From a virus, in the UHGV virus genome UHGV-0169486: a stretch of 50,405 nt of DNA. One strand, written 5' to 3'. The notes below the pieces were generated by a model. It was not told the origin of the DNA and did not search any database. It worked only from the letters and a program-made list of their open reading frames with translations. The translations under genes were made by a program, and so were the position numbers. This document shows, piece after piece, positions 2,973 to 48,675 of this stretch. Position 1 is the first letter of the stretch. Every line of letters begins with the position of its first letter.

Positions 2973-3051
2973 TTAACTTGAGCAAACGGCTTACCGGAAA
3001 GTTGATCTCTTTCTGGTGGCTGTTTTCGCGCTTAAAACGAGACGAAAAACA

Positions 3052-3609
3052 ATGAGCATTGAACTTGAAACAAAAGTTATCAATATCCTTGAACTGGACT
3101 GCATCGCAACAATGCACCAGCTACGCCAGAAAACCGGATTATCAGCGAAATATGACGAAGCCGGATGTTTGCCTGAGACAATTAAACACTTGATTGATAC
3201 TGGTATTGTCGAGCGTGTATATACATATTTCGGACCGCGCCGCAGATTATTGGGGTATCGAATTAAATATTTGTATGCACAACGTCGTGATCGTGTGGCG
3301 GCGTTATTTAGTGACTACAGCGTTAAGAAGCGTATGCGTGACATTAGCGCGGAAACTGGTATCCCGTGGAATTACCTGTCGCGCACGCTGCGTTTAATGG
3401 TACTTGATGAAACGCTTTGCATAGACACCAAAAAACACGGCCTTAACTTTTACTCACTGTTTAAACCTGGGCGCTTTGGTCACGCTAATGATCTCGCGTT
3501 TGATTTTGACAGCCGCCTGAATGAATACCGGAAAAATAACGGCCTGTTACCGGATAAACCAGTATTTGAGATCGAAAAACTTAACGGTGAAACGGGGTTA
3601 GAATTATGA
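3052..3609 (+). CDS. hypothetical protein
   Basis: ORF track (3016..3609); ATG 3052 preferred over upstream GTG; same operon as helicase. Confidence 0.5.
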   Translation: MSIELETKVINILELDCIATMHQLRQKTGLSAKYDEAGCLPETIKHLIDTGIVERVYTYFGPRRRLLGYRIKYLYAQRRDRVAALFSDYSVKKRMRDISAETGIPWNYLSRTLRLMVLDETLCIDTKKHGLNFYSLFKPGRFGHANDLAFDFDSRLNEYRKNNGLLPDKPVFEIEKLNGETGLEL

Positions 3610-8695: not shown

Positions 8696-8728
8696 AAAAT
8701 AAAGCCCCTATGTAGGGGCTTTTTATTA
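8695..8728. terminator. bidirectional rho-independent terminator between J and the 7733..8695 gene
   Basis: Hairpin AAAGCCCC..GGGGCTTT flanked by A-run and T-run. Confidence 0.7.
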
Positions 8729-11700
8729 CCAGTATCCAAGTATTATCACGCCACCATTCGGCAGATTAACTCTAACACCGTTATTATTAAGAATTACGCG
8801 CCCGTCGCTCCTCGTCATGCTAAATGTTCCGCCGCCTTGAACAATAACACTACCTCTCACGGTAACGTTGTTAAATTCAGCTCTACCATCTTTATTAATC
8901 ATCCACCCTGCGGATCCTGACGCGTAGTTAGATGATTGTATCTGCTGTGCGATCTTAGCACTTGTGATTGTTGCGTCTTTGATCCATGCGTCGCGTATAT
9001 AGCAAGAGCCATTTTGAACGTAGAAAGGCGTTTGATATGTACCGTTTGCGGCAGTCATTAACACAAAGCGATCAACAAGGAAAATACACTGTGACTGAAA
9101 GTTAGTCCCGTCTCCAGTCAATCCAAGCGACATACCTGTAGCGTATTTCATGCCGTTGTTATCGGTGGCGAGCTTGATTGAATATGACGCATCAACGTTG
9201 CCTTTGAAATCGGTTAACGCTTTCGATGTTGTCTCGATCGCTGTTGTGTTCCCGTTAACGGTCACTTTCAGCTGATCAATTTTGGTTGATAATGCCTCGT
9301 CCGCCGTTGTCATGGCCTGCGACCATTCAGTGATGCTTGAGTTTACATCGTCGAAAGATGCCGATATTTGGACAAATTTTTCAGCACTTGATGCCTCGTG
9401 AGTAGCGAGCGCCGTTGATATATCTGTTATTTTTGCTGAAATATTTTCATTAATATTGGCTTCAAGTGATGCTATAGCTTCCGCGCGGGCCTGGGTTTCG
9501 TCCGCTATTGCTGTGTCGACCCTTGCTATTTCTGCTTTTGTTTTTGTCTGGCCTTTCCTGTATTTTGCCTCAATAACAGTGCTCATTTTACTTTGCGCTA
9601 TTGAGTTGTTGATAAGTGCAATCGAGGCGTTTTGCAGACTTGCTTTCGCCTGATCTATTTCGTCGCTGTTTTTATCAACCTCATTTTCAACAAGACCAAG
9701 CTCCGCACTGATACCTGATATTGCCTGAGCGCGCGCACTTGATTCGTCAGCGATAGCTTGATCCAGGCGGCTAACACTGGCATTTGTGCTATTTTCAAGC
9801 GTTGTTAAATCAGCTTTAACCTCTGTTATTGCGTCGCTTCTTGCCTGCATTTCATCTGATATTGCTTTATCGAGACGAGAAACGCTCGCATCAGTTTTGT
9901 TTTCCAGGCTGCTGATACTGGCGTTAACGTTGCTTATAGCCTCCGTTCTCGCCTGCGTTTCGGTTGCCATTGCTTTGTCTACTCGGGCTATTTCTCCTTT
10001 GATGTTTGAGTCCATCGTATTTATTTCGGCTGTGATGGTTTCCAGTGATTCCGCTGTCGCTTTTTTCTCCTCTGCGATAACGTTGTCGATGCGGTCAATC
10101 TGTGCCTTCGTTTCGTTGCGACCTTTCTTATATTGAGCGGTAAGAGTAACCCGCGTGTTAGTTTGAGCAAGCGAGTTATTGATCAGAGCAAGCGAAGCGT
10201 TTTGTAAACTTGCTTTTGTCTGTGCCAGTTCGTTGTTAACGTTTTCGTTTGATACCTCTAATGAGTCTATTCTTACCTCATGTTTGCCTATTCCATCGGC
10301 GTTTTCTTCGACTTTTTTATAAAGGTCTTCGGTGTCTTTTTTAAGTGTATCTGTGTCAGCTTTAAGGTCGTCGGTGGCTGCCTTAAGGTCGTCAGTAGCG
10401 GATTTAAGGTCGTTGGTCGCACTTTCTATAATATCAGTGCGATCGCCAAGATCTTTAATATCGCTAATCATCTCTTTGAATTGCTCTGATTCCATTACAT
10501 CCTTTGTAACGTAATCAGTGATTTCGTCAAAATCCTCTGTTGGCTTACCTGATGCCTCGACGAAATCAGACACACCAAAAGCATTACGAGTGCGAACATA
10601 AACGTAATAAGTGTGGCCCGTGTTCATGCCGCCAAAAGTCCACTGATAACCGCGCCCGGTAAACTGTGCCGACGTGGTTATTTTTGCCGGATCTGTGATC
10701 TGGTTTTCCCCTGCATAGTAGAATTCGTATGACGTATCGGTAGTAAGTGTGGTTTTGCTTATCGGGTACACGGTCGCCTGAAATACGCCGGGAACCCAAT
10801 TAACGCCGATCGGTGCTGCTGGCGCACCGATAACAAGGTCAACGATACTTTCTGCACCCTTCATGCCAGTATCATTTCTTCCGCGAACGCCTAAAGAATA
10901 CACGCCAGCTTCAATACCATAAAAATCATAACTATATTTCGTGGTTTCATAGCTTTTAACCACCGCACCATCTGCATTGTATATGCGGATCTCGAAGGTC
11001 ATGCGATGCGTAGTTGTCTGTGTTTCCCATGTAGCGCGGCATTGAACAGTCTCTGACGCAATGTTTATTACTTTCAGGTTTTCTATGTTCGGAACGCGGA
11101 AATGATTAAGCGTGTCGTTGTTGATTTCAAATATTGCGCCTTCATCGACTACCGCTTGTTTGTTCGGGTCGTGCTGCGCGGCCTCGATGGTGTACACGCT
11201 GTTGTTTTCAGTTTCGGCTACGCTGGTGATCCTGCATAAAACGGGTTTTGCTGCTTCGGTTGATACAGCAAAAACAGTCCCGTTCCGAATCCATGCCGGG
11301 GCCGCTGCCAGTGTGATTTTGTTCCCGTTAACACCAGTGATCTGATGTTTTTTAAATTTTCCATCGCTATCAAGAAGACTTATAGTGTCGCCAGCCGCAA
11401 TATATTCTGAATCGACCTTATCTACCGTTATCACTTTACCATTGTTCGCCACGATGCGACCGCCTAAGCGAGCGCCAGCGCGGTTATTGTCGAGGATCTC
11501 GATTATATCCCCTGGCGTAAAGTGAATTGCGTCACGCGCCATTTTAAACGTGAATTTTGACGGCTCGCGTTTTGCTGTTTCTATCAGCCATTTGCCCGCG
11601 CGGTGCGCTTGCCCGCGTGACGTACAGCCGAACGCCTCCATCGTGGTTTCGTTGTAACCATCGCGGGCGATTAGCTCATCATCTGCTACATACTCTTTTG

Positions 11701-12943
11701 ATTGCTCCCAGCCGTTTTCCGGGTCAGTCCAGGACACAATCACGGCGTTGTAGCATTCCGCGCGGGAGATACTCGATCGAGTGAACGCCCCGTCAACGAC
11801 GTTTGCGTTTGTAATGGTGGCGATCGGGTCTTGTGGTGCATCAATCATCACGGTGAGGCGTTGCCCGTCCCATAACGCGATGCCTCGGAACATCCCGGCG
11901 ATATTGTCCAGTAAGTCGCGGGCGCTCATCTGCTCCGTAATGTAAGCATTAAGCGTCATGCGAGGCTCAAGGCCGCCATAACCATCATCGACCAGCTGAT
12001 CGCAGTATTGAGAAAGCGTATATAATGCGCCGTCGTCAACGTCAATATAGCCAGCATGACGGGCAAGGCCGAAACGCCTGTTTTTAACCAGATAGCGGAA
12101 TATCCAGGCGGGGTTATTACTGTATGCCTGTTTGAATCCGCCAAGCCATAAACCGGAATAAGTGCGAGTTTCCGGGTTATAGTTATCAGGAACATCAACA
12201 ATCAGCCCGCGCAGGTGATAAGTGCGGGTAGGCGTGTCAGCGTACTGATCATGATCAATCACCGCGCCAGCTACAGCGGTGTGAGGATAAGACAAATTAT
12301 CGTCGATTATTTCGCTGTAACTACTCCATCTCGTATCATTCTGCAATAGATCGCTTGTGCTATCGGCTGTTACACGGCGAACGCGAATATCGAAAGGTCT
12401 TTCATTTGGAGCGTTAATGACATGAGATTCGAGATATTCGCCGCTCTGCTTACCCGGGCCGATGGTTACGCTTTTAGCCAGCGACCATGCCGAAAATGAG
12501 GATGGTTTAACTTCAATCGCCATCATTACGGATGTGTTATGTTGATTGCTTTGCTCGTCAGACTGCACAAGCGAATCCACGCCGATATTCAGGCGAACGC
12601 GGTTTACGTTAGGATCGGAAACAGTCCTGATTATTGGCGTGTCGTGAGTTACCTTAGCGTTAACAATAGTGGTTGATTCAATGCCGTTAAAACCGTTAAT
12701 CGGAGATTGATCTAACGTGCCGTTACGCCACGCCACACTAACACCATGAACGCTTGTATTTCCGTTTGCGTCAGTAACAGGCGTGTCATTAAGCATCACG
12801 CTATTTAATGGCGCTTTTGTATTGACAGGGCCATAAATCGGCCCTTCTGAAATAATATCGAGTACACGATAAAACTGTTTGTGATAAAGGTTATCGTTTA
12901 TTAATGTTGGTGTTTTTGCTTTACCACCGCCGCCGCTACTCAT
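8726..12943 (-). CDS. J: tail tip / central tail fiber protein (lambda J-like)
   Basis: N-terminal 400 aa recalled as similar to lambda J (ISEGPI, YHLRG, CTSRGQAHRAG); long coiled-coil middle; 1405 aa. Confidence 0.9.
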   Translation of the reverse strand: MSSGGGGKAKTPTLINDNLYHKQFYRVLDIISEGPIYGPVNTKAPLNSVMLNDTPVTDANGNTSVHGVSVAWRNGTLDQSPINGFNGIESTTIVNAKVTHDTPIIRTVSDPNVNRVRLNIGVDSLVQSDEQSNQHNTSVMMAIEVKPSSFSAWSLAKSVTIGPGKQSGEYLESHVINAPNERPFDIRVRRVTADSTSDLLQNDTRWSSYSEIIDDNLSYPHTAVAGAVIDHDQYADTPTRTYHLRGLIVDVPDNYNPETRTYSGLWLGGFKQAYSNNPAWIFRYLVKNRRFGLARHAGYIDVDDGALYTLSQYCDQLVDDGYGGLEPRMTLNAYITEQMSARDLLDNIAGMFRGIALWDGQRLTVMIDAPQDPIATITNANVVDGAFTRSSISRAECYNAVIVSWTDPENGWEQSKEYVADDELIARDGYNETTMEAFGCTSRGQAHRAGKWLIETAKREPSKFTFKMARDAIHFTPGDIIEILDNNRAGARLGGRIVANNGKVITVDKVDSEYIAAGDTISLLDSDGKFKKHQITGVNGNKITLAAAPAWIRNGTVFAVSTEAAKPVLCRITSVAETENNSVYTIEAAQHDPNKQAVVDEGAIFEINNDTLNHFRVPNIENLKVINIASETVQCRATWETQTTTHRMTFEIRIYNADGAVVKSYETTKYSYDFYGIEAGVYSLGVRGRNDTGMKGAESIVDLVIGAPAAPIGVNWVPGVFQATVYPISKTTLTTDTSYEFYYAGENQITDPAKITTSAQFTGRGYQWTFGGMNTGHTYYVYVRTRNAFGVSDFVEASGKPTEDFDEITDYVTKDVMESEQFKEMISDIKDLGDRTDIIESATNDLKSATDDLKAATDDLKADTDTLKKDTEDLYKKVEENADGIGKHEVRIDSLEVSNENVNNELAQTKASLQNASLALINNSLAQTNTRVTLTAQYKKGRNETKAQIDRIDNVIAEEKKATAESLETITAEINTMDSNIKGEIARVDKAMATETQARTEAISNVNASISSLENKTDASVSRLDKAISDEMQARSDAITEVKADLTTLENSTNASVSRLDQAIADESSARAQAISGISAELGLVENEVDKNSDEIDQAKASLQNASIALINNSIAQSKMSTVIEAKYRKGQTKTKAEIARVDTAIADETQARAEAIASLEANINENISAKITDISTALATHEASSAEKFVQISASFDDVNSSITEWSQAMTTADEALSTKIDQLKVTVNGNTTAIETTSKALTDFKGNVDASYSIKLATDNNGMKYATGMSLGLTGDGTNFQSQCIFLVDRFVLMTAANGTYQTPFYVQNGSCYIRDAWIKDATITSAKIAQQIQSSNYASGSAGWMINKDGRAEFNNVTVRGSVIVQGGGTFSMTRSDGRVILNNNGVRVNLPNGGVIILGYW
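9520..10240 (-). repeat. internal duplicated coiled-coil module within J gene
   Basis: Two protein segments KASLQNAS[LI]ALINNS[LI]AQ...AKY[KR]KG...TKA[QE]I about 185 aa apart, with matching nucleotide segments near 9540-9660 and 10100-10240; boundaries approximate. Confidence 0.5.
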
Positions 12944-13488: not shown

Positions 13489-14237
13489 TTATCAGATCTC
13501 CATATTGAATGCGTTTGTCGAACATAAGCAGGCCGCATTTGCTCGCGGCGGCTTAATAGTCCGGCATGGTCATGATGCAAAACCGTGTTATCACCCAGGT
13601 AAATCATTGCGTGGCATGGATCCGCACCTTTAAACGGCTGTCTGATGATTACGTCACCTGGCTGGATGCTTTGCGCATCAACCTGATAAAACCCGTTTTG
13701 CGGCAAGTTTTTTAAATACAGGTTTTCACCGCGCAGCCACCAGCCATCAAGGCGCTCGAAGTCCGGCAGGTCTACACCACAAAGGTGATAGGCGTCACGG
13801 AAAAGCGCGTAGCAGTCAGTTACCCCGTGCACAAACTTACGGCCTAGCAGGTGCGCCACCGGGCGAAATTTTCTTATCTTGCCGCCGGAATATAAAAACC
13901 ACGGCAGACCGGAAATAACCTGCTGTTGTCGATCCCGCGCAGACAATACCGAAATATCATCAACGTGGGAGTGGAAAACGGCGGTTATAACGCCCAATTC
14001 GTCCGCTTTGATGTAATCGTCCGGCGAAATCTTGAAGCTGTTGTGAGGCGTTTCAGACACGTTAGCGCACGGGTAAAAATACTCGTTATCTATTACAAGT
14101 CCGCAAACTTCCTCAAACGGATGCGCGGCGGCATAACGCGACATTTTGTCTTCCATCCCCATGATTAACCTACCTTGCTGGAACCAGGGAAACAGGAGAT
14201 CGGCAGTGCTGCCGGGCGCGGGAAACGCAAACGGCAA
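13431..14237 (-). CDS. K: tail assembly protein K (MPN/JAMM plus NlpC/P60 domains)
   Basis: JAMM motif HSHVDDISVLSARD and NlpC/P60 Cys in TDCYAL; position between L and I. Confidence 0.85.
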   Translation of the reverse strand: MPFAFPAPGSTADLLFPWFQQGRLIMGMEDKMSRYAAAHPFEEVCGLVIDNEYFYPCANVSETPHNSFKISPDDYIKADELGVITAVFHSHVDDISVLSARDRQQQVISGLPWFLYSGGKIRKFRPVAHLLGRKFVHGVTDCYALFRDAYHLCGVDLPDFERLDGWWLRGENLYLKNLPQNGFYQVDAQSIQPGDVIIRQPFKGADPCHAMIYLGDNTVLHHDHAGLLSRREQMRPAYVRQTHSIWRSDKCSNLDLRAIFEDITAKCV

Positions 14238-14869
14238 CCGCTAAGGCGGTGACTGCACTTGTCTAACGTTGGGTCACTTGTTGGTGAATCTTTATCCGTT
14301 GCGACCGGGCCGCCAGAATACATGCACCCGTCGCCTCTGTATTGCCACTGGCAAACGTCAGCAAGGATGGTGCGCCCAGGAATAACAGCCTTATCTGCAT
14401 CAATTGGCGTTGACAGTTCATATTGCACCTGATCCGCTGTTTCTTCGCTCATGGACTCCACGACGTAAAAAGACACAGCTTCAATAGATGGATCTGCGTC
14501 GGGGTTTCCGTTAGGGAAGTTAACAGCGTCAAGATATTTCACCTCCACCTGGCGGCGCGTAACCTTCATGCCTCTTAGGTCGTTGAAATCGTTATTCATC
14601 CCCGTAATTAGCCCGCCGATGTTGGCTACAACCATTTGAGGGCGCGAATAAACGCCTTCGTTTTTCATTTCGAAGCCAGTAGCCTCGATGGGGTAACTGT
14701 TGTAAGCCGCCCCCTTCCAGATAACCGGGCCGTAATAGCCGTTTGCGCCGGAATGGAAGCGGATAACCTCGCCACCCAGGGGCGTAAGGTCCAGTTCGAA
14801 CAAGTCAATTACCGCGCCGACTCCGGCATCGACGGAATCAATAATCATCTCTGTAGGTATATTGCGCAT
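14165..14869 (-). CDS. L: minor tail protein L
   Basis: Recalled similarity to lambda L (YLDAVNFPNGN, CQWQYRGDGC, DKCSHRLSGC). Confidence 0.85.
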   Translation of the reverse strand: MRNIPTEMIIDSVDAGVGAVIDLFELDLTPLGGEVIRFHSGANGYYGPVIWKGAAYNSYPIEATGFEMKNEGVYSRPQMVVANIGGLITGMNNDFNDLRGMKVTRRQVEVKYLDAVNFPNGNPDADPSIEAVSFYVVESMSEETADQVQYELSTPIDADKAVIPGRTILADVCQWQYRGDGCMYSGGPVATDKDSPTSDPTLDKCSHRLSGCRLRFPRPAALPISCFPGSSKVG

Positions 14870-14923
14870 TTTCTCACCTTGTCATTTTGTGATCTGCATC
14901 ACGCAAGATCATGCCAAAATGGA

Positions 14924-14952
14924 TTGATCCATATTTTTACAATATGTATATT
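14924..14952 (+). promoter_or_regulatory. sigma70-like promoter for plus-strand gene island A
   Basis: TTGATC - 17 nt - TATATT; overlaps conserved 14-mer TTTACAATATGTAT. Confidence 0.4.
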
Positions 14953-15216
14953 TTACTCAAACGAAGGGGAGTCAACAAAATGGCACAACTTTGAACAAGG
15001 TAGAACACTATGAGACCCGCAAAATACGCAGAGAAAGTTTTTGTTGAAGTGAAAGGCGACATGAAAAAATTTATGGATGTTCTTATCAAAGAGATGGGAA
15101 AACCGTTCCATATAGCCGAACGTCAGTATTACGCTTGCAAGGCTAATAGCTACAACAGATACGCATGACAATAAACACAAAGGTAACACCATGCAAAATA
15201 TCGTCTCGATGTATGG

Positions 15217-15543
15217 ATGGCAGGAAGTAAGGATTGGGAAGGTTACGGCTTGTATGATAGTCACGAAATGGCGATCGAGGAAGGTGAAAAACTTGTTCGA
15301 TTCTTCGGACGCGCCAGGGAATTTAAAATCATTCCAGTACAAATAGCGGATAAGGTGGAAGATATGAACCCGAAAGATATTAATGTTAACTTCAATGTTA
15401 ATTTTGCCAACTCTATGGATCAGGCTTGTCCTAGTGAAATACACGTAAAAGGTTTCCCGGCAGATGATCCGCAAGCAAAACGTGAATACGAAAAAGCGGC
15501 AAAAGATTTCTGTATCGACAACCTGGGAGCGTTCGGCAAATAA
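15217..15543 (+). CDS. hypothetical acidic protein (island A)
   Basis: ORF track; protein-like composition unlike the overlapping 224-aa antisense ORF; weak RBS. Confidence 0.4.
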   Translation: MAGSKDWEGYGLYDSHEMAIEEGEKLVRFFGRAREFKIIPVQIADKVEDMNPKDINVNFNVNFANSMDQACPSEIHVKGFPADDPQAKREYEKAAKDFCIDNLGAFGK

Positions 15544-15552
15544 GGTGGCAAT

Positions 15553-15801
15553 ATGACGCGGCGCAATCACGGTGACTATGTGTACACGTTGAAACAGGCC
15601 GCCCGCCTTATCGGTTATCATGAGCACGAATTTATTGATTTGCTGATTGAGCGCGGGGTTTTGTACCAGGTCTGTTTAACGCTGTACCCAAAAGCGAAAT
15701 ACCTACAGGAAAAGTTATTCATCATCATGACGGATGAAAACCAGGTAAACCATTCATTCGTCACTGATAAGGGATTGACATATTTGAAGGGGGCGTTATG
15801 A
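15553..15801 (+). CDS. hypothetical HTH-like small protein (island A)
   Basis: ORF track; AAGGTGG RBS; segment YTLKQAARLIGYHEHEFIDLLIERGVLY resembles a DNA-binding HTH. Confidence 0.5.
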   Translation: MTRRNHGDYVYTLKQAARLIGYHEHEFIDLLIERGVLYQVCLTLYPKAKYLQEKLFIIMTDENQVNHSFVTDKGLTYLKGAL

Positions 15802-15870
15802 GATGTGCGAACATTACGTTCTGGAGGTGATTATTATCATTATTGGATTGTTATGCATTCTGCTATCGAC

Positions 15871-15900
15871 ACTATAAACCCCGCTTCGCGCGGGGTCGTG
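15871..15900. terminator. hairpin terminator between island A and the convergent minus-strand gene
   Basis: CCCCGC-ttcgc-GCGGGG hairpin with flanking T-rich runs on both strands. Confidence 0.45.
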
Positions 15901-15901
15901 T

Positions 15902-16087
15902 TTATACCCTATCAACCAAAAATAAAACTCCCCTTCCCTCTCTCGACCTGCACCCAACATACCCGTCACCAACGTCATGAAGATACCAGATCTCGCCATT
16001 GTCATCCTTTACGGTAAGATCTTTGATTTCATAGTCGTCAAATAATGTAAAAGCGCCCGTGCGGTCAACTACACAAATAGCATACAT
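15902..16087 (-). CDS. hypothetical protein downstream of M
   Basis: ORF track (15902..16129); ATG 16087 with GGAGAAG RBS. Confidence 0.4.
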   Translation of the reverse strand: MYAICVVDRTGAFTLFDDYEIKDLTVKDDNGEIWYLHDVGDGYVGCRSREGRGVLFLVDRV

Positions 16088-16100
16088 ATTGACTTCTCCA

Positions 16101-16454
16101 TTAATTGATAACTTGTTCAAACGTTGCATTCAGAGTGCATACCGGGCCGTCTTTCGCCATGCTCCACTTTCGGCATACAAAAAGCCTTTTCACTCCGTCT
16201 GTAGATGGCGTCCAGTAAAACGCCTCGACCGCGCAACGTGCTCTTAAAAATGCGTCAACCTGGAGCGCCACGTTTCCGGCGTCACCGCATCCGGCGCTCG
16301 TACCTTTAAAGACCAGCGTATAGCTGTCAAGTAGTGGATTAATCCCTTTTGTCTGGCGCTGTTCATAGCCATCGCCCAGCTTGATAACGGACACGTTAGG
16401 CTCACTGTTTACGCTGTAGCTTCTCTGTGGTGTCCATCTGAACACTTCCGGCAT
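16101..16454 (-). CDS. M: minor tail protein M
   Basis: Recalled similarity to lambda M (FRW..., GDGY.QR, FEQV.N C-terminus); GGAGG RBS. Confidence 0.8.
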   Translation of the reverse strand: MPEVFRWTPQRSYSVNSEPNVSVIKLGDGYEQRQTKGINPLLDSYTLVFKGTSAGCGDAGNVALQVDAFLRARCAVEAFYWTPSTDGVKRLFVCRKWSMAKDGPVCTLNATFEQVIN

Positions 16455-16624
16455 ACCCCCTCCTGTAAGTTACATTTTGTATATATCTTTACGCACTTCT
16501 ACGCGAAAAATGAGATATTCGACACAAGAATTATAGCCAATTTACAATATGTATTCACACACGAAGCAACAAGCTGTATACAGGAAGCAAGAAGAAAAGC
16601 GGTACCAGCAAGTGAGGCCCAAAA

Positions 16625-16780
16625 ATGAGTAGCTATGTAGTAGTGATGCTAAACAACGCATTCGAGCAAGTGGAAGTAGCAATTGTTAAGGGTTTCGACG
16701 ACGCATTCAAATACGGTCAATTCATGATGAACGCGAAGAATGATGAATACCGGGATTTCTTCCTGAGGGCGCTTAACTAA
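16625..16780 (+). CDS. hypothetical small protein (51 aa, island B)
   Basis: Own translation MSSYVVVMLNNAFEQVEVAIVKGFDDAFKYGQFMMNAKNDEYRDFFLRALN; GTGAGG RBS. Confidence 0.3.
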   Translation: MSSYVVVMLNNAFEQVEVAIVKGFDDAFKYGQFMMNAKNDEYRDFFLRALN

Positions 16781-16790
16781 GGACGATGGG

Positions 16791-17051
16791 GTGAGTTATG
16801 AAACTGGTAACTATCGAAAAAACCTGAAAGCACAAAAGAATGCACAGGAACGGGTAATCAAGAAAGGCAAGAAGTTGCTTAACGCCTTCCTGAAAAAAGA
16901 AGCCCGCCCCAAAAAATTACGTGATGGTTATGGCTTTAAATTCGATATCAATCCTGACTGGCGGCTGTTCAGTGAAGATTTGAATATTTGGTTAATTATC
17001 GATCACCTGGAATACAACTGTCATTGCGGAGTGAAAGGCGCTCATAAGTGA
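16791..17051 (+). CDS. hypothetical basic protein (island B)
   Basis: ORF track; GTG start with AGGA RBS; Lys-rich. Confidence 0.4.
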   Translation: MSYETGNYRKNLKAQKNAQERVIKKGKKLLNAFLKKEARPKKLRDGYGFKFDINPDWRLFSEDLNIWLIIDHLEYNCHCGVKGAHK

Positions 17052-17160
17052 GGTGGAATATGGAGGAGGAGAAATATACCTAGCGGGAGATCTGGAACAT
17101 CTGGTTAGTGATGTTCGGCAGGGGTTACGTCGCACGTAACGGAAGATTATAGGAGGAAAA

Positions 17161-17346
17161 ATGATTATTGACGAAACAGAGTTATGTTACGGAGTTAGGT
17201 TAGATCTTGATGAGGATGGTCGGCTGTGGATAACCGAACTTATGGGGACTGAAACCATAGTAATTGAAAAATCGCAGGCAACACAACTTATCGCCGGGCT
17301 GCAAAAATTTGTAGATGGCACATTTGAGAACGATCGGGAGGATTAA
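17161..17346 (+). CDS. hypothetical acidic small protein (island B)
   Basis: ORF track; strong AGGAGG RBS. Confidence 0.5.
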   Translation: MIIDETELCYGVRLDLDEDGRLWITELMGTETIVIEKSQATQLIAGLQKFVDGTFENDRED

Positions 17347-17348
17347 CG

Positions 17349-17636
17349 ATGGATTTAACCGTTATTGGTCACGCACTGGCTGCGGCGACTATACAGGTTG
17401 TTATCGGCCTGCTTACTGGTGATTATCTCACTGGCGGCCTGATTGGATGTACATTCTTTTTTGCGCGGGAACACACACAGGCTGAATATCGTTACATAGC
17501 GGAATTTTGCGGAGGGAAACGAGAAAGAATGCCGTGGTATGGTGGTTTTTTACCAAAAGCATGGAATATGGCTAGCGTTTGCGACTTCGCCGCGCCCGCA
17601 TTCCTGTGCTGTTTAATTTATATCCTTACCATGTAA
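17349..17636 (+). CDS. hypothetical membrane protein (island B)
   Basis: ORF track; GGGAGGA RBS; hydrophobic N- and C-terminal segments; followed by terminator. Confidence 0.5.
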   Translation: MDLTVIGHALAAATIQVVIGLLTGDYLTGGLIGCTFFFAREHTQAEYRYIAEFCGGKRERMPWYGGFLPKAWNMASVCDFAAPAFLCCLIYILTM

Positions 17637-17640
17637 AATA

Positions 17641-17661
17641 AAGGCCGCTTATAGCGGCCTT
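17641..17661. terminator. bidirectional rho-independent terminator between tape measure gene and island B
   Basis: Hairpin AAGGCCGCT-tat-AGCGGCCTT with flanking T-rich runs on both strands. Confidence 0.65.
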
Positions 17662-17665
17662 AGTG

Positions 17666-20014
17666 TTATTTGCGGCGCGGTTGCAACATCCCGCCAGGTC
17701 TTTGCGATTCCCTTGTTATCATTTTCATTGCTACACGTTCCATTGTCTGTTCAAGTCTGCGGCTGTCTTCGTCACTAAATCCGTTTGTGGTTTGAATGTC
17801 GATGTAAACAGGCATACTGATACCGCCGCCGCCGCCGCCAATATCACGCCCCGGGATAACCCTGCCATTCTCGCCGGGGATCATGTATTGGTTGCCGTTA
17901 GACGTCTGGAATAGCTCCGGCCTGTTATGTTCCCCGACGCGGTACATATTGCCACCAATTACGCTACCACCATTAAAGCGCCCGCCGCCGAAAATGGATG
18001 TTGCCAGCGACGTGATCGCAGTAAGCGCCGCCGAACCAGCCGCCGCCCAGCTACCGCCAGTTGATGCAGCCGTTGCCGCCGCCGCCGGGGCCGCCGCCGC
18101 CGCGATGCTTCCCTGAGCGGCAACCGCGCTTGCCGTTGTACTTGCTTGAGTTGCCTTGCTTTGTGTTTCCATCATGATCTGATCTGCTATCCAGTCGGCT
18201 GCTATATCAGAAAGTCTGTTGCCAATATTCCCTAGTATATTGCTCCCTAAGTTAGCAAAAACATCGCTCAATGATTGAGTACCGTTAAGCAGGCCGACAA
18301 GCGCATTGCTCATACCACCTTTAAGGCCATTAACGCAATCACCGATCAGGCCGTTTGTCTGGCTTTGCGCCTGCCATTGCTCCCATTTCAGATCGCGGAT
18401 CTGTTGCTCATAGGCTAACAATGCCTGTTTCTGTTGCGCTTCGGTAGCGCCCAGGTCGATAAGCTTTTGCTTACGGACGGCCCATTCATCTTGTACCTGC
18501 TTAATAGGGTCAACCTCGCCTTTAAGCTGATTCATCGGGCTTACTATTTGCGCCCATTTATCACGCAATTCATCTACCTGAATTTGGGCTAATTCTTCAT
18601 CCCGTTCCTTAACTATCCCTTTTTGCGCGGCGCGGTACTCAAGGAGGGTGATTTTACCCTGGGCGAATGCAGCATCAATGGCCTTGCCGTTCTCTAACGC
18701 TTTGCGCATGGCGGCGGTGTCTTTATTGTACTGGTCAGAAACGCTTATACCCTTGTCACCAAGCGTATCCTCTTTGCTTTTCTTGCTGCCAGTCTTCTTA
18801 CCCTTTTTAGGCTTATCAACTGGCTTGTCGAATCCGGTGATCTTGCCGTCGTTGGCTTCTGCCTGTTTCTGCATAAACTCATCATAAGCGGCAGTCGCGT
18901 TTTTAATGTCGTTTGCAAAAGTCATGACTTTACCGACTGTAGGGCCGAATTTCTTCTCATTGTTGCTATTTAGTTCTTCCTTGCGCTTATCTACAACCTC
19001 CTTCATCCATTTGTAGGCGTCCATAAGTGCCTTGATTGGCGTCACCATTGCGATGATCTTCTCTGCCACCTCGCCAGCCTTCACAGCCACATCATCAAAC
19101 ATGTCGATGAATTCGCCACCAGCCGTTTTGAGTGTATCGAAGCAGGTTTTAGCGAATTTAGCGCCCTCACCTAACCCCTTAACGCCTTTTGTGATTAAGT
19201 CGATAGCTGAGACTACGCCATCTGATACGCCGAAAAGATCATCAAGCTGTTCAACAAGCCCCATGATTTCGACTTTAAGCTCATTGATAGCCATGCCGGA
19301 TGTGCGCGGCAACTGAGCAAACTGCTCGTTTGTTTCCTGCGTAGCCGCCTGGATTGCGTTAACCATCCTTTCTGCCGTGATCTTGCCGTCCAGCATTTCG
19401 GCGCGGAACTTGCCCATAGATAACCCCATCTGACGGGCCATTGTCTGTACGATGGTCGGGGTGTTTTCAAGTAGGCTGTTAAATTCTTCAGCACGCAGCA
19501 CGCCGCCGTCTATAGACTGGCGGAACTGGCGCATAGAGTTAGACATCTGTTCCGCTGATGCGCCGCCTAACGCCCCCATTTTCTGAATAGTGCCAACCAG
19601 GTTAAGTAATTGCCCTTCCGTAGCTGACGTGTTCTTCAGTGAGATGGCAAGACCTTGCCATAACTCGCCAGTATCCTTCAGGCTTTGCCCTGTTTCCCTG
19701 GATATTGCTTTCAGGCCGTCGAAAACCCGTCCGGCGGACTCCGCATCGCCCGTAAGCATTTTGATTTTTACGCGAAGCATTTTGGCCTGCTCTGCCATTT
19801 CCATAAACTGTCTAACGGCCTCGGCAGCAATTAGCAGATAGATAACCTTGGTCAGTGCTTTGATTGATGTTTTCAGTGTGTTTACCTGGCGATCTGCCTG
19901 TTTAGCACCGCGCTCTATACGGTCAAAGGCCTGGTCTGCCTGTCGTTGTGCTACAAGAAGTTGTCCTGTTTTTGCGTCAACTTCGTAATAAATTGTGCCT
20001 ACACTGGTAGCCAT
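17666..20014 (-). CDS. tail tape measure protein
   Basis: 782 aa, helical/coiled-coil composition, Ala/Gly-rich C-terminal region; located between chaperone and M; GAGG RBS. Confidence 0.9.
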   Translation of the reverse strand: MATSVGTIYYEVDAKTGQLLVAQRQADQAFDRIERGAKQADRQVNTLKTSIKALTKVIYLLIAAEAVRQFMEMAEQAKMLRVKIKMLTGDAESAGRVFDGLKAISRETGQSLKDTGELWQGLAISLKNTSATEGQLLNLVGTIQKMGALGGASAEQMSNSMRQFRQSIDGGVLRAEEFNSLLENTPTIVQTMARQMGLSMGKFRAEMLDGKITAERMVNAIQAATQETNEQFAQLPRTSGMAINELKVEIMGLVEQLDDLFGVSDGVVSAIDLITKGVKGLGEGAKFAKTCFDTLKTAGGEFIDMFDDVAVKAGEVAEKIIAMVTPIKALMDAYKWMKEVVDKRKEELNSNNEKKFGPTVGKVMTFANDIKNATAAYDEFMQKQAEANDGKITGFDKPVDKPKKGKKTGSKKSKEDTLGDKGISVSDQYNKDTAAMRKALENGKAIDAAFAQGKITLLEYRAAQKGIVKERDEELAQIQVDELRDKWAQIVSPMNQLKGEVDPIKQVQDEWAVRKQKLIDLGATEAQQKQALLAYEQQIRDLKWEQWQAQSQTNGLIGDCVNGLKGGMSNALVGLLNGTQSLSDVFANLGSNILGNIGNRLSDIAADWIADQIMMETQSKATQASTTASAVAAQGSIAAAAAPAAAATAASTGGSWAAAGSAALTAITSLATSIFGGGRFNGGSVIGGNMYRVGEHNRPELFQTSNGNQYMIPGENGRVIPGRDIGGGGGGISMPVYIDIQTTNGFSDEDSRRLEQTMERVAMKMITRESQRPGGMLQPRRK

Positions 20015-20164
20015 GATTTAACCTCATGCAAATGTGATCTATGCATCTATTTTATACAAAATGTCTTTACTTTAACGATACCGTTTTGTATAAATGATGT
20101 AGGGAAAGATAGAAGAGATGCAGGAAGGACGGATGTCCCGGAGGAAGTGAAAGAGGATAAGGAA

Positions 20165-20248
20165 ATGAGAAACGTAAACTACCGTCCCAACGAATATGAA
20201 CGCTATGCGGACCTTATCGAAGAAATGTTAAAAGCACTTAAAAAATAA
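20165..20248 (+). CDS. possible micro-ORF (27 aa)
   Basis: Own translation MRNVNYRPNEYERYADLIEEMLKALKK; GAGGATAAGGAA RBS. Confidence 0.25.
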   Translation: MRNVNYRPNEYERYADLIEEMLKALKK

Positions 20249-20315
20249 ACAATATGCGTGTATAACTAAGTTAAATGAAGCATTTAGCAAATCAGAATAA
20301 TTACGGGGGTTAATT

Positions 20316-20729
20316 ATGAAACGGTTAGCAAAAATGGTACTTGCTGTGATTGCTGCACTGGCATTTAACGCGAACGCTAACGAGGCCATAAACATTAACT
20401 GTGAAGAAGTGGCAAACCATGTAGCCGCATATCACGACATGATCAAAAAAGAACCAGCCGCACCCAAAATTCTTTTTAAGGTAATTGATAAAATTTTTGA
20501 AGGTAAACCAGTTTATGCTCGTTGGTTTAATTATGGCCTTGTAATCGAGGCTGCTGCAAGCGTAGGCTTTGAAAACAACAGCGAAATAAAAAACAGGATA
20601 GCTAACGAGTGTAAAGCAAATAAAATTGCTTTCGCTGAAAGAATTTTTAATAAAGGCGGCGCTGGCGCAAAAAATCACGCAATTGTCAATTTAGGTAACG
20701 GTTTTATTGATATTGTTAGAATCAAATAA
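20316..20729 (+). CDS. secreted/periplasmic hypothetical protein with signal peptide (opposite-strand accessory gene)
   Basis: N-terminal signal peptide MKRLAKMVLAVIAALAFNANA; GGGGG RBS; AT-rich; own terminator. Confidence 0.6.
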   Translation: MKRLAKMVLAVIAALAFNANANEAININCEEVANHVAAYHDMIKKEPAAPKILFKVIDKIFEGKPVYARWFNYGLVIEAAASVGFENNSEIKNRIANECKANKIAFAERIFNKGGAGAKNHAIVNLGNGFIDIVRIK

Positions 20730-20736
20730 GACAAAC

Positions 20737-20758
20737 GCCCGGATCTACCGGGCTTTTT
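20737..20758 (+). terminator. rho-independent terminator after secreted-protein gene
   Basis: GCCCGG-atcta-CCGGGC followed by TTTTT. Confidence 0.6.
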
Positions 20759-39232: not shown

Positions 39233-39416
39233 CGCCCCGCTTATAGATATGCACTGGCTTAACAGGAATGGCAGGCAATTCGCCTTCATTTAACGCGCTT
39301 GCCATACCTAATATTAAACGCGCTTCCGCACCAGTAACTTTCTTACACCATGCGCCGCCTGTTTTGTCTTCAAATAAGATAACAGCGAACTGATCGTTTA
39401 TTTCCAGCTTATCCAT
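39216..39416 (-). CDS. hypothetical protein
   Basis: ORF track; directly downstream of Q. Confidence 0.5.
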   Translation of the reverse strand: MDKLEINDQFAVILFEDKTGGAWCKKVTGAEARLILGMASALNEGELPAIPVKPVHIYKRGDDENN

Positions 39417-40138
39417 TATTCACCCCGTGTCACTCGCTTGATTTCGCTTTCCGCGCGGGCTTCTTCTTTGAATAGCTCCGCTATGGCGTCCTCATAGAAA
39501 ACCCTGTATTTCTTCCACCATGTTGATCGGCTTACCGGGAAAACAAGCTGGTTAACAGCCTGCCGGACAAGATCTACAGGGAAACGCGAGTAGCCTCGCC
39601 CGCCGCAGTGCTGGCACGTTTTGAATACTGGCATTTCCGCCGCTTCGCTGGCTGTTTTATCCGGTATCTCGCCACTCCCCTTGCATTGTTTACAATGATT
39701 GCGAACCTTTCCATGCCCCTTGCATTTTTTGCAAAGATGTTTTTCTCCGTAGTCGTCAAACGTAAATTTATATCCGCCGCACTCCATACAAGTTTTTTCC
39801 GTCGCGGCGCTTTGGCAATAATCCCGAAACGCGAAAACGGCAACAAGAATAATAAGATCATTGCGTTGTTCTTCATTTAATTCCATCACATATTCGTAAT
39901 CTTTCGCCATAGCTCTTAAACGCTCTGTAAGCAATACTACAGCCCTGTGTTTTTCGGCTTGCGATAGCTCCATCTTCCCTAAAAAAGCACTATAGCCAAG
40001 CTCTACGCGCGATTGCGCCATACCCGCAGCGGTTAGCGCATCAGTCGTATTAAGCGCATCCGGGGATGTGCCCCGGCTTTCGTCTGATAATCGCGGTGAT
40101 TTGGGAAAGTGGAATTTCAGAATGGATTCTAAATTCAT
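39416..40138 (-). CDS. Q: late-gene antiterminator Q-like protein with Cys-rich insertion
   Basis: N-terminus MNLESILKFHFPKSPRLSDESRG...AAGMAQS recalled as similar to lambda Q; multiple CxxC pairs; GGGGGGA RBS. Confidence 0.75.
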   Translation of the reverse strand: MNLESILKFHFPKSPRLSDESRGTSPDALNTTDALTAAGMAQSRVELGYSAFLGKMELSQAEKHRAVVLLTERLRAMAKDYEYVMELNEEQRNDLIILVAVFAFRDYCQSAATEKTCMECGGYKFTFDDYGEKHLCKKCKGHGKVRNHCKQCKGSGEIPDKTASEAAEMPVFKTCQHCGGRGYSRFPVDLVRQAVNQLVFPVSRSTWWKKYRVFYEDAIAELFKEEARAESEIKRVTRGE

Positions 40139-41579: not shown

Positions 41580-41676
41580 TTTTGTTTGCTTGAAGTATAC
41601 AAAACGGATGCGCCAGAACAAGGCGAAAAGCGCCATTATGTGATGCATATCACGCTATGACGCCATTTTGTAAACT

Positions 41677-43971: not shown

Positions 43972-44069
43972 CTTGTTTTCTCCGCGCCGTAAACCTTTCG
44001 ATTTCTTCTTACAAAACGGATATGCGATCACAGCACAAAATGTATATTTATGTGATCGCGATCACCCTG

Positions 44070-48063: not shown

Positions 48064-48675
48064 TTATGGCAGGTTTACGATCTTCGCGTCCACCACCACG
48101 CCTATGATTTTCGATTCAGGATTCATGGGGATTGGTGGATACAGCGGGTTAAGCGAACGTAAAAGCCTTTGACCTCCATCAATAATCAACTGTTTAAACG
48201 TCGGTATTTGCCCTTCCTCAAGCTGTGCTATAACCAGCTTTCCATCGATAGCTGGCGCGTGTGGGTCAACAAGTATCATCGTCCCGGCAGGGATGCTCAA
48301 CCCCTGCGGCGCGTTCATTGATTCACCTTTAGCAACCAGCCAGTAACTATCATCTGAACAAATAACGCTAGTCGTAACGTGTGGTAATGTTGATCGCCTT
48401 GTATCTTCCATATTGTTTACTGTGTCCTTCCAGTCAACAACCGGGTAACTGCCTAAATCACGCTGCGGCGCTCCCGGTAACGTGTTAGAAACAGAATCAT
48501 CAATGACCATTCCATCATGGGTAACAGTGAACTGCCGACGACCAAGTGCCCGCATAATCCGCGCAATATCTTCAAGATTTGGCTCGCGGCGACCGTTAAG
48601 CCAGTGTGACAGGCCGCCTTTAGTTATCCCCATGAGATCCGCGAGTGAATCCTGGCTCATGCCTTGCGCTCGCAT
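48064..48675 (-). CDS. CI-like repressor (HTH plus LexA/S24 peptidase domain); 5' end possibly frameshifted
   Basis: HTH SQDSLADLMGITKGGLSHWLNG; S24 region with GESM and Lys; annotated ATG lacks RBS and truncates helix 1. Confidence 0.7.
   Translation of the reverse strand: MRAQGMSQDSLADLMGITKGGLSHWLNGRREPNLEDIARIMRALGRRQFTVTHDGMVIDDSVSNTLPGAPQRDLGSYPVVDWKDTVNNMEDTRRSTLPHVTTSVICSDDSYWLVAKGESMNAPQGLSIPAGTMILVDPHAPAIDGKLVIAQLEEGQIPTFKQLIIDGGQRLLRSLNPLYPPIPMNPESKIIGVVVDAKIVNLP

Follow-up and report, generated by a model that had tools for sequence, protein, structure and literature searches.

Tail genes L and M of the virus genome UHGV-0169486 (50,405 nucleotides, referred to in full as the window) are separated by a gap of 1231 bp (positions 14870-16100), which is named here island A. 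The window is a relative of the temperate coliphage mEp021 ("mEpimmI") group, with a nucleotide identity of 84-87% to mEp021, mEp044, mEp010, mEp515, mEp554, mEp013 and MagusPhagus. Its tail genes J, I, K, L and M and the tape-measure gene are all encoded on the minus strand. Island A carries four small open reading frames (ORFs) on the plus strand, coding for 52, 108, 82 and 24 amino acids (aa), preceded by a sigma70-like promoter and followed by a hairpin beyond which an ORF of 61 aa lies on the strand of the late genes (Table 1). The sole recognisable gene of the island, ORF3, codes for a KilAC domain, and the interpretation favoured below is that of a moron-type unit built around this small regulator.

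An earlier note on this DNA, made from its letters alone, had described the block as oriented against the late operon, which holds for the plus-strand ORFs and not for the 61-aa ORF. It had counted two or three plus-strand ORFs; the acidic 108-aa product and the 82-aa product with its AAGGTGG ribosome-binding site (RBS) are indeed found, but the count is four and the 24-aa ORF had been missed. The impression that the island is more AT-rich than its flanks is confirmed: island A has a GC fraction of 0.419, lower than those of L (0.528), M (0.508) and the window as a whole (0.462).

Table 1. Features of island A, of the flanking tail genes and of related loci in the window
Feature	Position	Strand	Remarks
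Tail gene J	8726-12943	minus	
Tail gene L	14165-14869	minus	Pfam Phage_tail_L 9e-71; left flank, late operon
Palindrome TGTGA-TCTGCA-TCACG	14888-14903		9/10 match to CRP core TGTGA-N6-TCACA
Sigma70-like promoter TTGATC-17-TATATT	14924-14952	plus	9/12 consensus; predicted start ~14959
Palindrome TACA-ATA-TGTA	14938-14948		promoter spacer; covers first two bases of -10 hexamer
ORF1, type A allele	15010-15168	plus	52 aa, basic, isoelectric point (pI) 9.5
ORF2	15191-15543; intact frame 15217-15543	plus	108 aa, acidic, pI 4.9
ORF3 (KilAC)	15553-15801	plus	82 aa; RBS AAGGTGG at 15542-15548
Hydrophobic peptide ORF MCEHYVLEVIIIIIGLLCILLSTL	15803-15877	plus	24 aa; grand average of hydropathy (GRAVY) 2.15
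GC-rich hairpin, predicted two-way terminator	15878-15896	both	-15.9 kcal/mol (plus), -18.4 kcal/mol (minus), z ~-3 each
61-aa acidic ORF	15902-16087	minus	phrog_3249; late strand, directly downstream of M
Tail gene M	16101-16454	minus	Pfam Phage_min_tail 2e-28; right flank, late operon
Island B	16455-17665		between M and tape-measure gene
Island B promoter-like site TCGACA-18-TACAAT	16519-16548		
Island B ORFs	16625-16780; 16791-17051; 17161-17346; 17349-17636	plus	51 aa; 86 aa; (third ORF); 95 aa
Island B two-way hairpin	17641-17661		end of block
Tape-measure gene (H)	17666-20014	minus	
Island C	20015-20744		upstream of tape-measure gene; GC 0.37
Island C ORFs	small ORF ending 20248; 20316-20729	plus	second: 137 aa, signal-peptide-like N-terminus, no family match
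Q-type antiterminator	39416-40138		PF03589, 5e-29
Putative early promoter ACAAAATGGATTGACT-17-TATATT	47950-47912	minus	upstream of N-like antiterminator gene
HTH+S24-type repressor	48064-48675		S24 RecA-cleavable

Distribution and genes of island A

The M-L region was compared across 13 fetched relatives and 80 IMG/VR loci encoding a relative of L, including 41 close loci with both L and M. Island A is present in all 13 fetched relatives and in 40 of the 41 close IMG/VR loci (53/54 together), and the KilAC gene, ORF2 and the 61-aa gene are found in every island-bearing IMG/VR locus. Among 5426 complete E. coli genomes, 35 also have it in a prophage. The distance from M to L spans 1196-1891 bp in the close relatives that bear the island (40 of 41). 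The two genes are adjacent (5-45 bp) in prophages of Franconibacter, Intestinirhabdus and Lonsdalea and in ~17 IMG/VR contigs; L is 68-72% identical in the outgroup Enterobacteriaceae prophages and ~71% in the contigs with adjacent M and L. The comparison that the earlier note had recommended thus supports its view of the block as extra DNA. The block is near-universal in the mEp021 group and absent from the M-L junction of outgroups. Its description as an accessory island does not hold in the sense of variability within the group, where it is the content that is swapped. The island as a whole is nearly fixed and its contents are mosaic, with two forms of ORF1, an optional gene of 77-79 aa, two types of hydrophobic peptide and shuffled domains of ORF2.

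Prophages of Pseudescherichia, Citrobacter and Enterobacter, together with many contigs, have unrelated inserts of 300-1300 bp at the same junction, several of which carry opposite-strand ORFs or a convergent gene pair. The M-L junction is, on this comparison, a recurrent cargo site or insertion hotspot of enterobacterial prophages, because it is empty in some of them and holds unrelated inserts in others. The outgroup cargo (loci L071, 2523-3329; L095, 2870-3334; L063 and L077; L098-L100, ~3048-3391) includes on the opposite strand ORFs of 268 aa, of 154 aa (with a retropepsin-like DTGA motif) and of 111-114 aa. A convergent pair of ORFs of 55 and 58 aa is found at the junction in Pseudescherichia and Citrobacter. 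The tail module of mEp021 has another variable insert, a gene for an HNH endonuclease (mEp021_78; L003, 2380-2946) that separates I from J and has no counterpart in the window, where the two tail genes are 14 bp apart.

Clean loss of the island genes was found in a single mEpimmI lineage, represented by IMGVR_UViG_3300045988_076424 (53.9 kb; L050, 3369-3501) and by E. coli MS 21-1 (complete genome NZ_CP146670.1, 2541710-2542119), that is in one of the 41 IMG/VR relatives and in one of the 33 complete E. coli genomes with the region. The deletion runs from the start codon of ORF1 to that of the 61-aa ORF and leaves an M-L gap of 131 bp in which the leader is kept, so that promoter and CRP-like site now face into M. 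Since this natural deletion removes all island genes cleanly, they are dispensable, at least for carriage as a prophage.

ORF3 matches the Pfam family ANT/KilAC (PF03374) with 27.8 bits (cut-off 25.3; E 3.4e-6) over positions 23-102 of the 108 in the profile. Its homologues form seven clusters in 5.8 billion proteins, and PF03374 is recognised in six of the seven. The protein has a constant length and ~90% identity across the group and is intact in every locus examined; the median pairwise ratio of non-synonymous to synonymous substitution rates (dN/dS) of its gene is 0.096. In tblastn searches it aligns, with 30-39% identity, to the C-terminal domains of Rha/Ant-type proteins from Vibrio, Cronobacter and Pseudomonas phages, which identifies it as a stand-alone KilAC domain. 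All 14 aligned loci code for the KilAC part only; the domains that usually precede it (AntA/AntB, Bro-N or pRha) are absent, and ORF2, which lies upstream, is a gene of its own with no match in Pfam. Note that in the pangenome of the mEpimmI group (48 genomes) an "antirepressor protein KilAC-like" is one of the core genes that were defined manually (PMC11893012) and that mEp021_71 was deposited as 'putative antirepressor protein'.

ORF1 exists in two unrelated forms. The window, STEC308, PAR and MFDS1019527 carry the rarer type A, an orphan with six protein clusters in 5.8 billion sequences, of which those named by source are all from E. coli. Most relatives carry type B (55-61 aa), and the switch from one to the other occurs right after a conserved ATGGC. 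The median pairwise dN/dS is 0.07 for type A, with few changes, and 0.27 for type B.

ORF2 codes for 116-117 aa in the relatives. The form found in the window is shortened at its 5' end and starts at an internal ATG: one A was lost from a run of five at ~15194-15198, which puts the ancestral start at 15191 out of frame and leaves only 108 codons. Independent lesions are found in three of the four type-A islands, namely this 1-nucleotide (nt) deletion in the window, a TGG to TAG change in STEC308 (L004) and another stop in MFDS1019527 (L005); of 54 loci of relatives that were scanned, 50 have an intact ORF2. The gene may have decayed in these islands once its paralogue, type B ORF1, had been lost; for the window, a sequencing error in the homopolymer is the other possibility. 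The intact protein is modular. Its amino terminus occurs in at least four allelic types and its linker in several, and the last 45 residues are nearly invariant, with two cysteines and one histidine strictly so. Accordingly graded dN/dS values were obtained for the N-domain (0.21), the linker (0.38) and the C-domain (0.083-0.093), and only one of 429 N-domain pairs exceeds 1. Comparison of type B ORF1 with the ORF2 N-domain by hhalign gives a probability of 59% (E 9.5e-5). The two are probably paralogues that are swapped as alleles and act as modulators.

ORF2 is an orphan with 14 matches among 1.84 billion representatives and, like both forms of ORF1, is restricted to the mEp021 phage group. 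No match to it was found in Pfam or among Protein Data Bank (PDB) sequences, an exhaustive profile search recovered its own orphan family and spurious repeat proteins only, and its AlphaFold2 model (mean confidence, pLDDT, of 57) is too poor for a structure search. Some relatives have an additional gene of 77-79 aa between ORF2 and the KilAC gene (77 aa in mEp021), which is missing from the window. The 24-aa hydrophobic peptide that follows ORF3 has the same amino acid sequence in STEC308, UMNK88, FAH and MagusPhagus despite nucleotide changes. A hydrophobic ORF of 38-45 aa takes its place in other relatives, and PAR and KKa019 have neither. The median dN/dS of these small peptides is 0.26-0.37.

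The 61-aa ORF on the late strand has a dN/dS of 0.097 and is frameshifted in KKa019. Its homologues (40-48% identity) are small early genes of T1-like phages (Rtp rtp57, Rogue1_0053). A role as tail component was considered and ruled out, the homologues being found among T1-like early genes and not in tail modules.

Overall, the coding ORFs of island A have median pairwise dN/dS values of 0.07-0.37, indicative of purifying selection. The island proteins have no match in NCBIfam, KilAC is their only Pfam match and the PHROGs that they match are families of unknown function only. PADLOC gave no match at E <=1 for the four products of 52, 108 and 82 aa (plus strand) and 61 aa (minus strand), and no Rfam family was matched at E <=1 between positions 14000 and 18000.

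Control signals and neighbouring blocks

The leader of island A is the best-conserved non-coding stretch. Across 43 distinct leaders (55 loci) the -35 element TTGAT, the -10 block TACAaTAtGTATATT and TACTCAAA are near-invariant, as are the first transcribed bases, and the intervening spacers vary. This pattern is best read as the footprint of a real promoter. The promoter TTGATC-17-TATATT proposed by the earlier note is thus upheld by its conserved hexamers and variable spacers and not by its match to the consensus. Its -35 side CAAAATGGATTGA and its -10 hexamer TATATT are the same as in the putative early promoter that precedes the N-like gene, with a different spacer. The early promoter is followed by a boxA-like TGCTCTTTAA, and its spacer holds GTGTATCACGG, which resembles a lambda operator half-site; this spacer may carry the repressor operator.

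Upstream of the promoter lies a palindrome close to the CRP core consensus TGTGA-N6-TCACA. Its GTGAT and CAC are invariant in the 43 distinct leaders and its central positions vary; a single locus (L046) departs from this in a half-site, at the first T of TGTGA. With a transcription start assumed 7 nt after the -10 hexamer, the centre of the site (14895.5) is at -63.5, and at -62.5 in relatives whose leader is 1 nt shorter. Four copies of TGTGA-N6-TCAC are present in the window (at 928, 14888, 41639 and 44051), against 0.31 expected; they may be CRP sites or sites of a phage protein, both being candidates. The copy at 44051, TGTGATCGCGATCAC, is completely self-complementary, and those at 41639 and 44051 are intergenic in the early-right operon, each close to a CCGTTTTGTA motif. 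Two other identities of the island A palindrome were rejected: as an RNA hairpin in the leader of L its stability does not exceed that of shuffled sequences (z -1 to -1.9), and it is not of the published boxA/boxB type because the loops of the latter are A-rich.

Another palindrome, TACA-N3-TGTA, overlaps the promoter itself. It occurs six times in the window (385, 14938, 16471, 16543, 28618 and 47474) against 0.58 expected, a number reached in none of 100 shuffles. Five of the six copies are in intergenic regulatory regions (two in the leader of island B, one in the promoter of island A, one upstream of the replication gene and one just past the N-like gene), and the motif is possibly a common operator of some regulator. 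The octamer ACAAAATG is found 13 times (3.8 expected), mostly in intergenic leaders (~9 copies). The leader of island A is flanked by an inverted pair of them (14883-14890, minus; 14975-14982, plus), and the natural deletion of the island genes has an endpoint within the right-hand one. A search for the operator set of a CI-like repressor found no clear set and yielded only the short shared motifs ACAAAATG, TACA-N3-TGTA and CCGTTTTGTA. No LexA box (CTGT-N8-ACAG) is present in 14870-16100 when up to one mismatch is allowed.

The hairpin terminator reported in the earlier note is present, with a folding z score of about -3 in either direction. Its stem is retained in 14 of 14 aligned loci and its loop is variable; a terminator was annotated at this position by the depositors of mEp021, mEp044 and mEp554. 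Compensatory changes were sought in the stem across the aligned loci and none was found, so that covariation offers no argument for the hairpin, the stem being simply conserved while the loop differs. The structure is predicted to close both the plus-strand unit and the transcript of M and the 61-aa ORF.

Two further counter-oriented blocks are found in the tail module. Island B, between M and the tape-measure gene, has four plus-strand ORFs, a promoter-like site and a two-way hairpin at its end. Its 86-aa product matches Pfam ParE_like (2.2e-10), a homologue is named 'ParE family toxin-like' by the annotation pipeline PGAP, and the 51-aa ORF could code for the corresponding antitoxin. Island C, upstream of the tape-measure gene, is the third block; its leader has TGTGATC and an inverted pair ATACAAAATG...CCGTTTTGTAT.

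Proposed working of island A and alternatives

Island A is rather likely to be a self-contained moron-type unit that provides a small KilAC regulator outside the late phase and tunes SOS/RecA induction. The conserved sigma70-type promoter, which has the CRP-like palindrome upstream and faces away from L, would drive the four small genes. Host RNA polymerase would read them while late transcription is off, in the lysogen or early in infection. To reach L-K-I-J, transcription modified by Q would later have to pass the hairpin and read the entire cassette in antisense, and its head-on collision with transcription of the cassette would shut the latter down late in infection. The anchor gene of the unit, KilAC, would code for a small regulator and not for a structural or defence protein. 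Its most likely job would be to tune the RecA/SOS-dependent induction of its own or of co-resident prophages, because the KilAC domain alone is the SOS-blocking part of Listeria AriS, where it suppresses the SOS response, probably via RecA (PMC9043618). Damping of SOS/RecA is the best-supported guess, to which direct DNA binding through a MerR/excisionase-like fold would be the alternative. Of the three functions that had been put forward in the earlier note, regulation has the support of homology through KilAC; superinfection exclusion and anti-defence have none, as no PADLOC, Pfam or NCBIfam match besides KilAC points there.

Several observations weigh against this proposal. The likeness of ORF3 to AriS is at the level of the Pfam domain only and spans the gap from Gram-positive to Gram-negative hosts, and inhibition of the SOS response by AriS was seen only on overexpression (PMC9043618). 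Taken on its own, the promoter match is at chance level, with six promoter-like sites in 14700-17800 and 6.4 expected from shuffles. Control by CRP is only a lead because the site is 1-2 bp away from the classical class I position of -61.5 relative to the predicted start. The U-tracts past the hairpin are short on both strands. The near-fixation of the island in the mEp021 group is unusual for a moron. Finally, parts of the cassette may be decaying, ORF2 being damaged in three of the four type-A islands.

A broader version of the proposal unites the three counter-oriented tail blocks (L|M, M|H and upstream of H) into one coordinated lysogeny-phase regulon. Their leaders would be tied together by TACA-N3-TGTA (islands A and B) and ACAAAATG (all three), with cAMP-CRP acting on island A; the stand-alone KilAC would couple the carbon status of the host to RecA/SOS-dependent prophage induction, and the whole set would be switched off by Q-antiterminated antisense late transcription. 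We regard this version as improbable.

The main competitor, which we hold to be unlikely and yet the most serious one, is that the island is lysogenic-conversion cargo in which the peptide or ORF1/ORF2 acts in superinfection exclusion or anti-defence and KilAC regulates nothing but the cassette. The moron anatomy within a tail operon recalls HK97 gene 15 (PMC3594210), every product other than KilAC is an orphan, and the 24-aa hydrophobic peptide is conserved, or replaced by one of 38-45 aa in other relatives; that peptide is nevertheless absent from PAR and KKa019, and three loci have a damaged ORF2, while KilAC is always intact. The discrete shuffled alleles of ORF1 and of the ORF2 N-domain would suit an arms race, against which stands an N-domain dN/dS that surpasses 1 in a single pair out of 429. 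PADLOC, Pfam and NCBIfam gave no supporting match, and the exclusion function of this phage group was experimentally assigned to Lpp lipoproteins that are encoded elsewhere (PMC11893012). Growth inhibition is even less plausible than a purely transcriptional role (see below). It would make KilAC, the hydrophobic peptide or both part of a kil/toxin module for host arrest or prophage stabilisation. The KilA-C domain of phi11 Gp07 alone does cause growth inhibition and filamentation, with a block of division, in E. coli (PMC5944126), though this is the effect of overexpressing a distant homologue. The neighbouring island B has a ParE-like toxin domain. In size and composition the 24-aa peptide is similar to the small hydrophobic toxins of type I systems; neither a cognate antitoxin nor an antisense RNA gene nor an Rfam family was detected, and a constitutive sigma70 promoter ahead of a toxin would be hard to tolerate.

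The transcriptional role, itself improbable, treats the ORFs as passengers of a convergent promoter and a two-way terminator that insulate or throttle the tail operon, stopping leaky read-through into L-K-I-J in the lysogen and setting the ratios of tail proteins. It would account for the conservation of the leader, above that of any other non-coding stretch, for its complete retention (promoter and CRP-like site) in the variants that lost every gene, and for the existence of three counter-oriented blocks, two of which (L|M and M|H) each have an outward promoter-like site and a hairpin terminator. Passengers, however, are not expected to be under purifying selection or to include a length-invariant KilAC that is ~90% identical, and outgroup phages function with M and L adjacent. 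Retention of the leader may just mark the end of the deletion, and the leader also holds the translation start region of L. The last alternative, that the plus-strand ORFs are chance frames and that the real gene is a 224-aa minus-strand ORF (14953-15627), has next to no probability. This ORF is the longest in the interval, and the earlier note had named its conservation in relatives as evidence that would speak against the island. It has no Pfam or PHROG match, and in each of the 13 fetched relatives it is split into fragments of 40-160 aa, which refutes it as a gene, while the plus-strand ORFs keep frame and length under the low dN/dS given above.

If the proposal of a KilAC regulator unit is true, a family of temperate coliphages that is prevalent in the gut maintains, within its tail operon, a small regulator with a transcript of its own, and ORF3 would be a minimal one-domain system to learn the role of the widespread and poorly understood KilAC domain. 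The M-L junction of lambda-like tail modules is in addition a recurrent landing site for cargo in enterobacterial prophages. For annotators, the long antisense ORF is spurious and the four small genes are real, one of them of only 24 codons.

Comparison with known systems

The locus is already deposited, as hypothetical proteins and a "putative antirepressor", in mEp021 (mEp021_70 to _74), mEp044, mEp554 and MagusPhagus. These phages have a homologous block (84-87% nucleotide identity) with the gene order of the window. The window differs from them: its ORF1 is of the rarer type A, its ORF2 is frameshifted and the additional 77-aa gene of mEp021 is missing. The opposite-strand blocks are neither described nor analysed in the study that lists the KilAC-like gene as core (PMC11893012).

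ORF3 shares with AriS and Ant-type regulators its match to PF03374, and among phage proteins it is closest to the C-terminal domains of the Rha/Ant type. The phage of the window also has an S24-type repressor, so that control of the SOS response would matter to it. The differences are the single domain of 82 aa, the location in the tail module instead of the early region and the remoteness of the similarity. Because the N-terminal domain is absent, ORF3 is not a member of the two-domain AriS/Ant family.

Antirepressor modules under LexA control that are distant from the immunity region are known from the Gifsy prophages, from N15 (antC) and from SPC32H (Ant). Island A resembles them in that a temperate phage has, outside its immunity region, a small gene of regulator type under a promoter of its own. 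It differs in having no LexA-box-like sequence and no sequence similarity to them; moreover, no antirepressor would be needed for induction since the repressor of the window has an S24 self-cleavage domain.

The closest likeness in overall design is to the morons, whose prototype, HK97 gene 15, has a small inner-membrane product that excludes phages (PMC3594210). Island A differs from it in being multigenic, in being read against the late operon, with which it has the two-way terminator in common, and in being nearly fixed across its phage group (53/54 loci) and not sporadic; its cargo is unrelated to gp15/YebO. The features in common are an insert that separates tail genes which adjoin each other in related phages, a predicted promoter and terminator of its own, a deviant GC content, small proteins that include a membrane peptide, and a hotspot whose cargo differs between phages. 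Judged by its extra DNA, its own promoter and terminator and its deviant GC, island A fits the description of a moron-like element at an insertion hotspot that is internally mosaic, and in this respect it would be an ordinary moron-type cassette.

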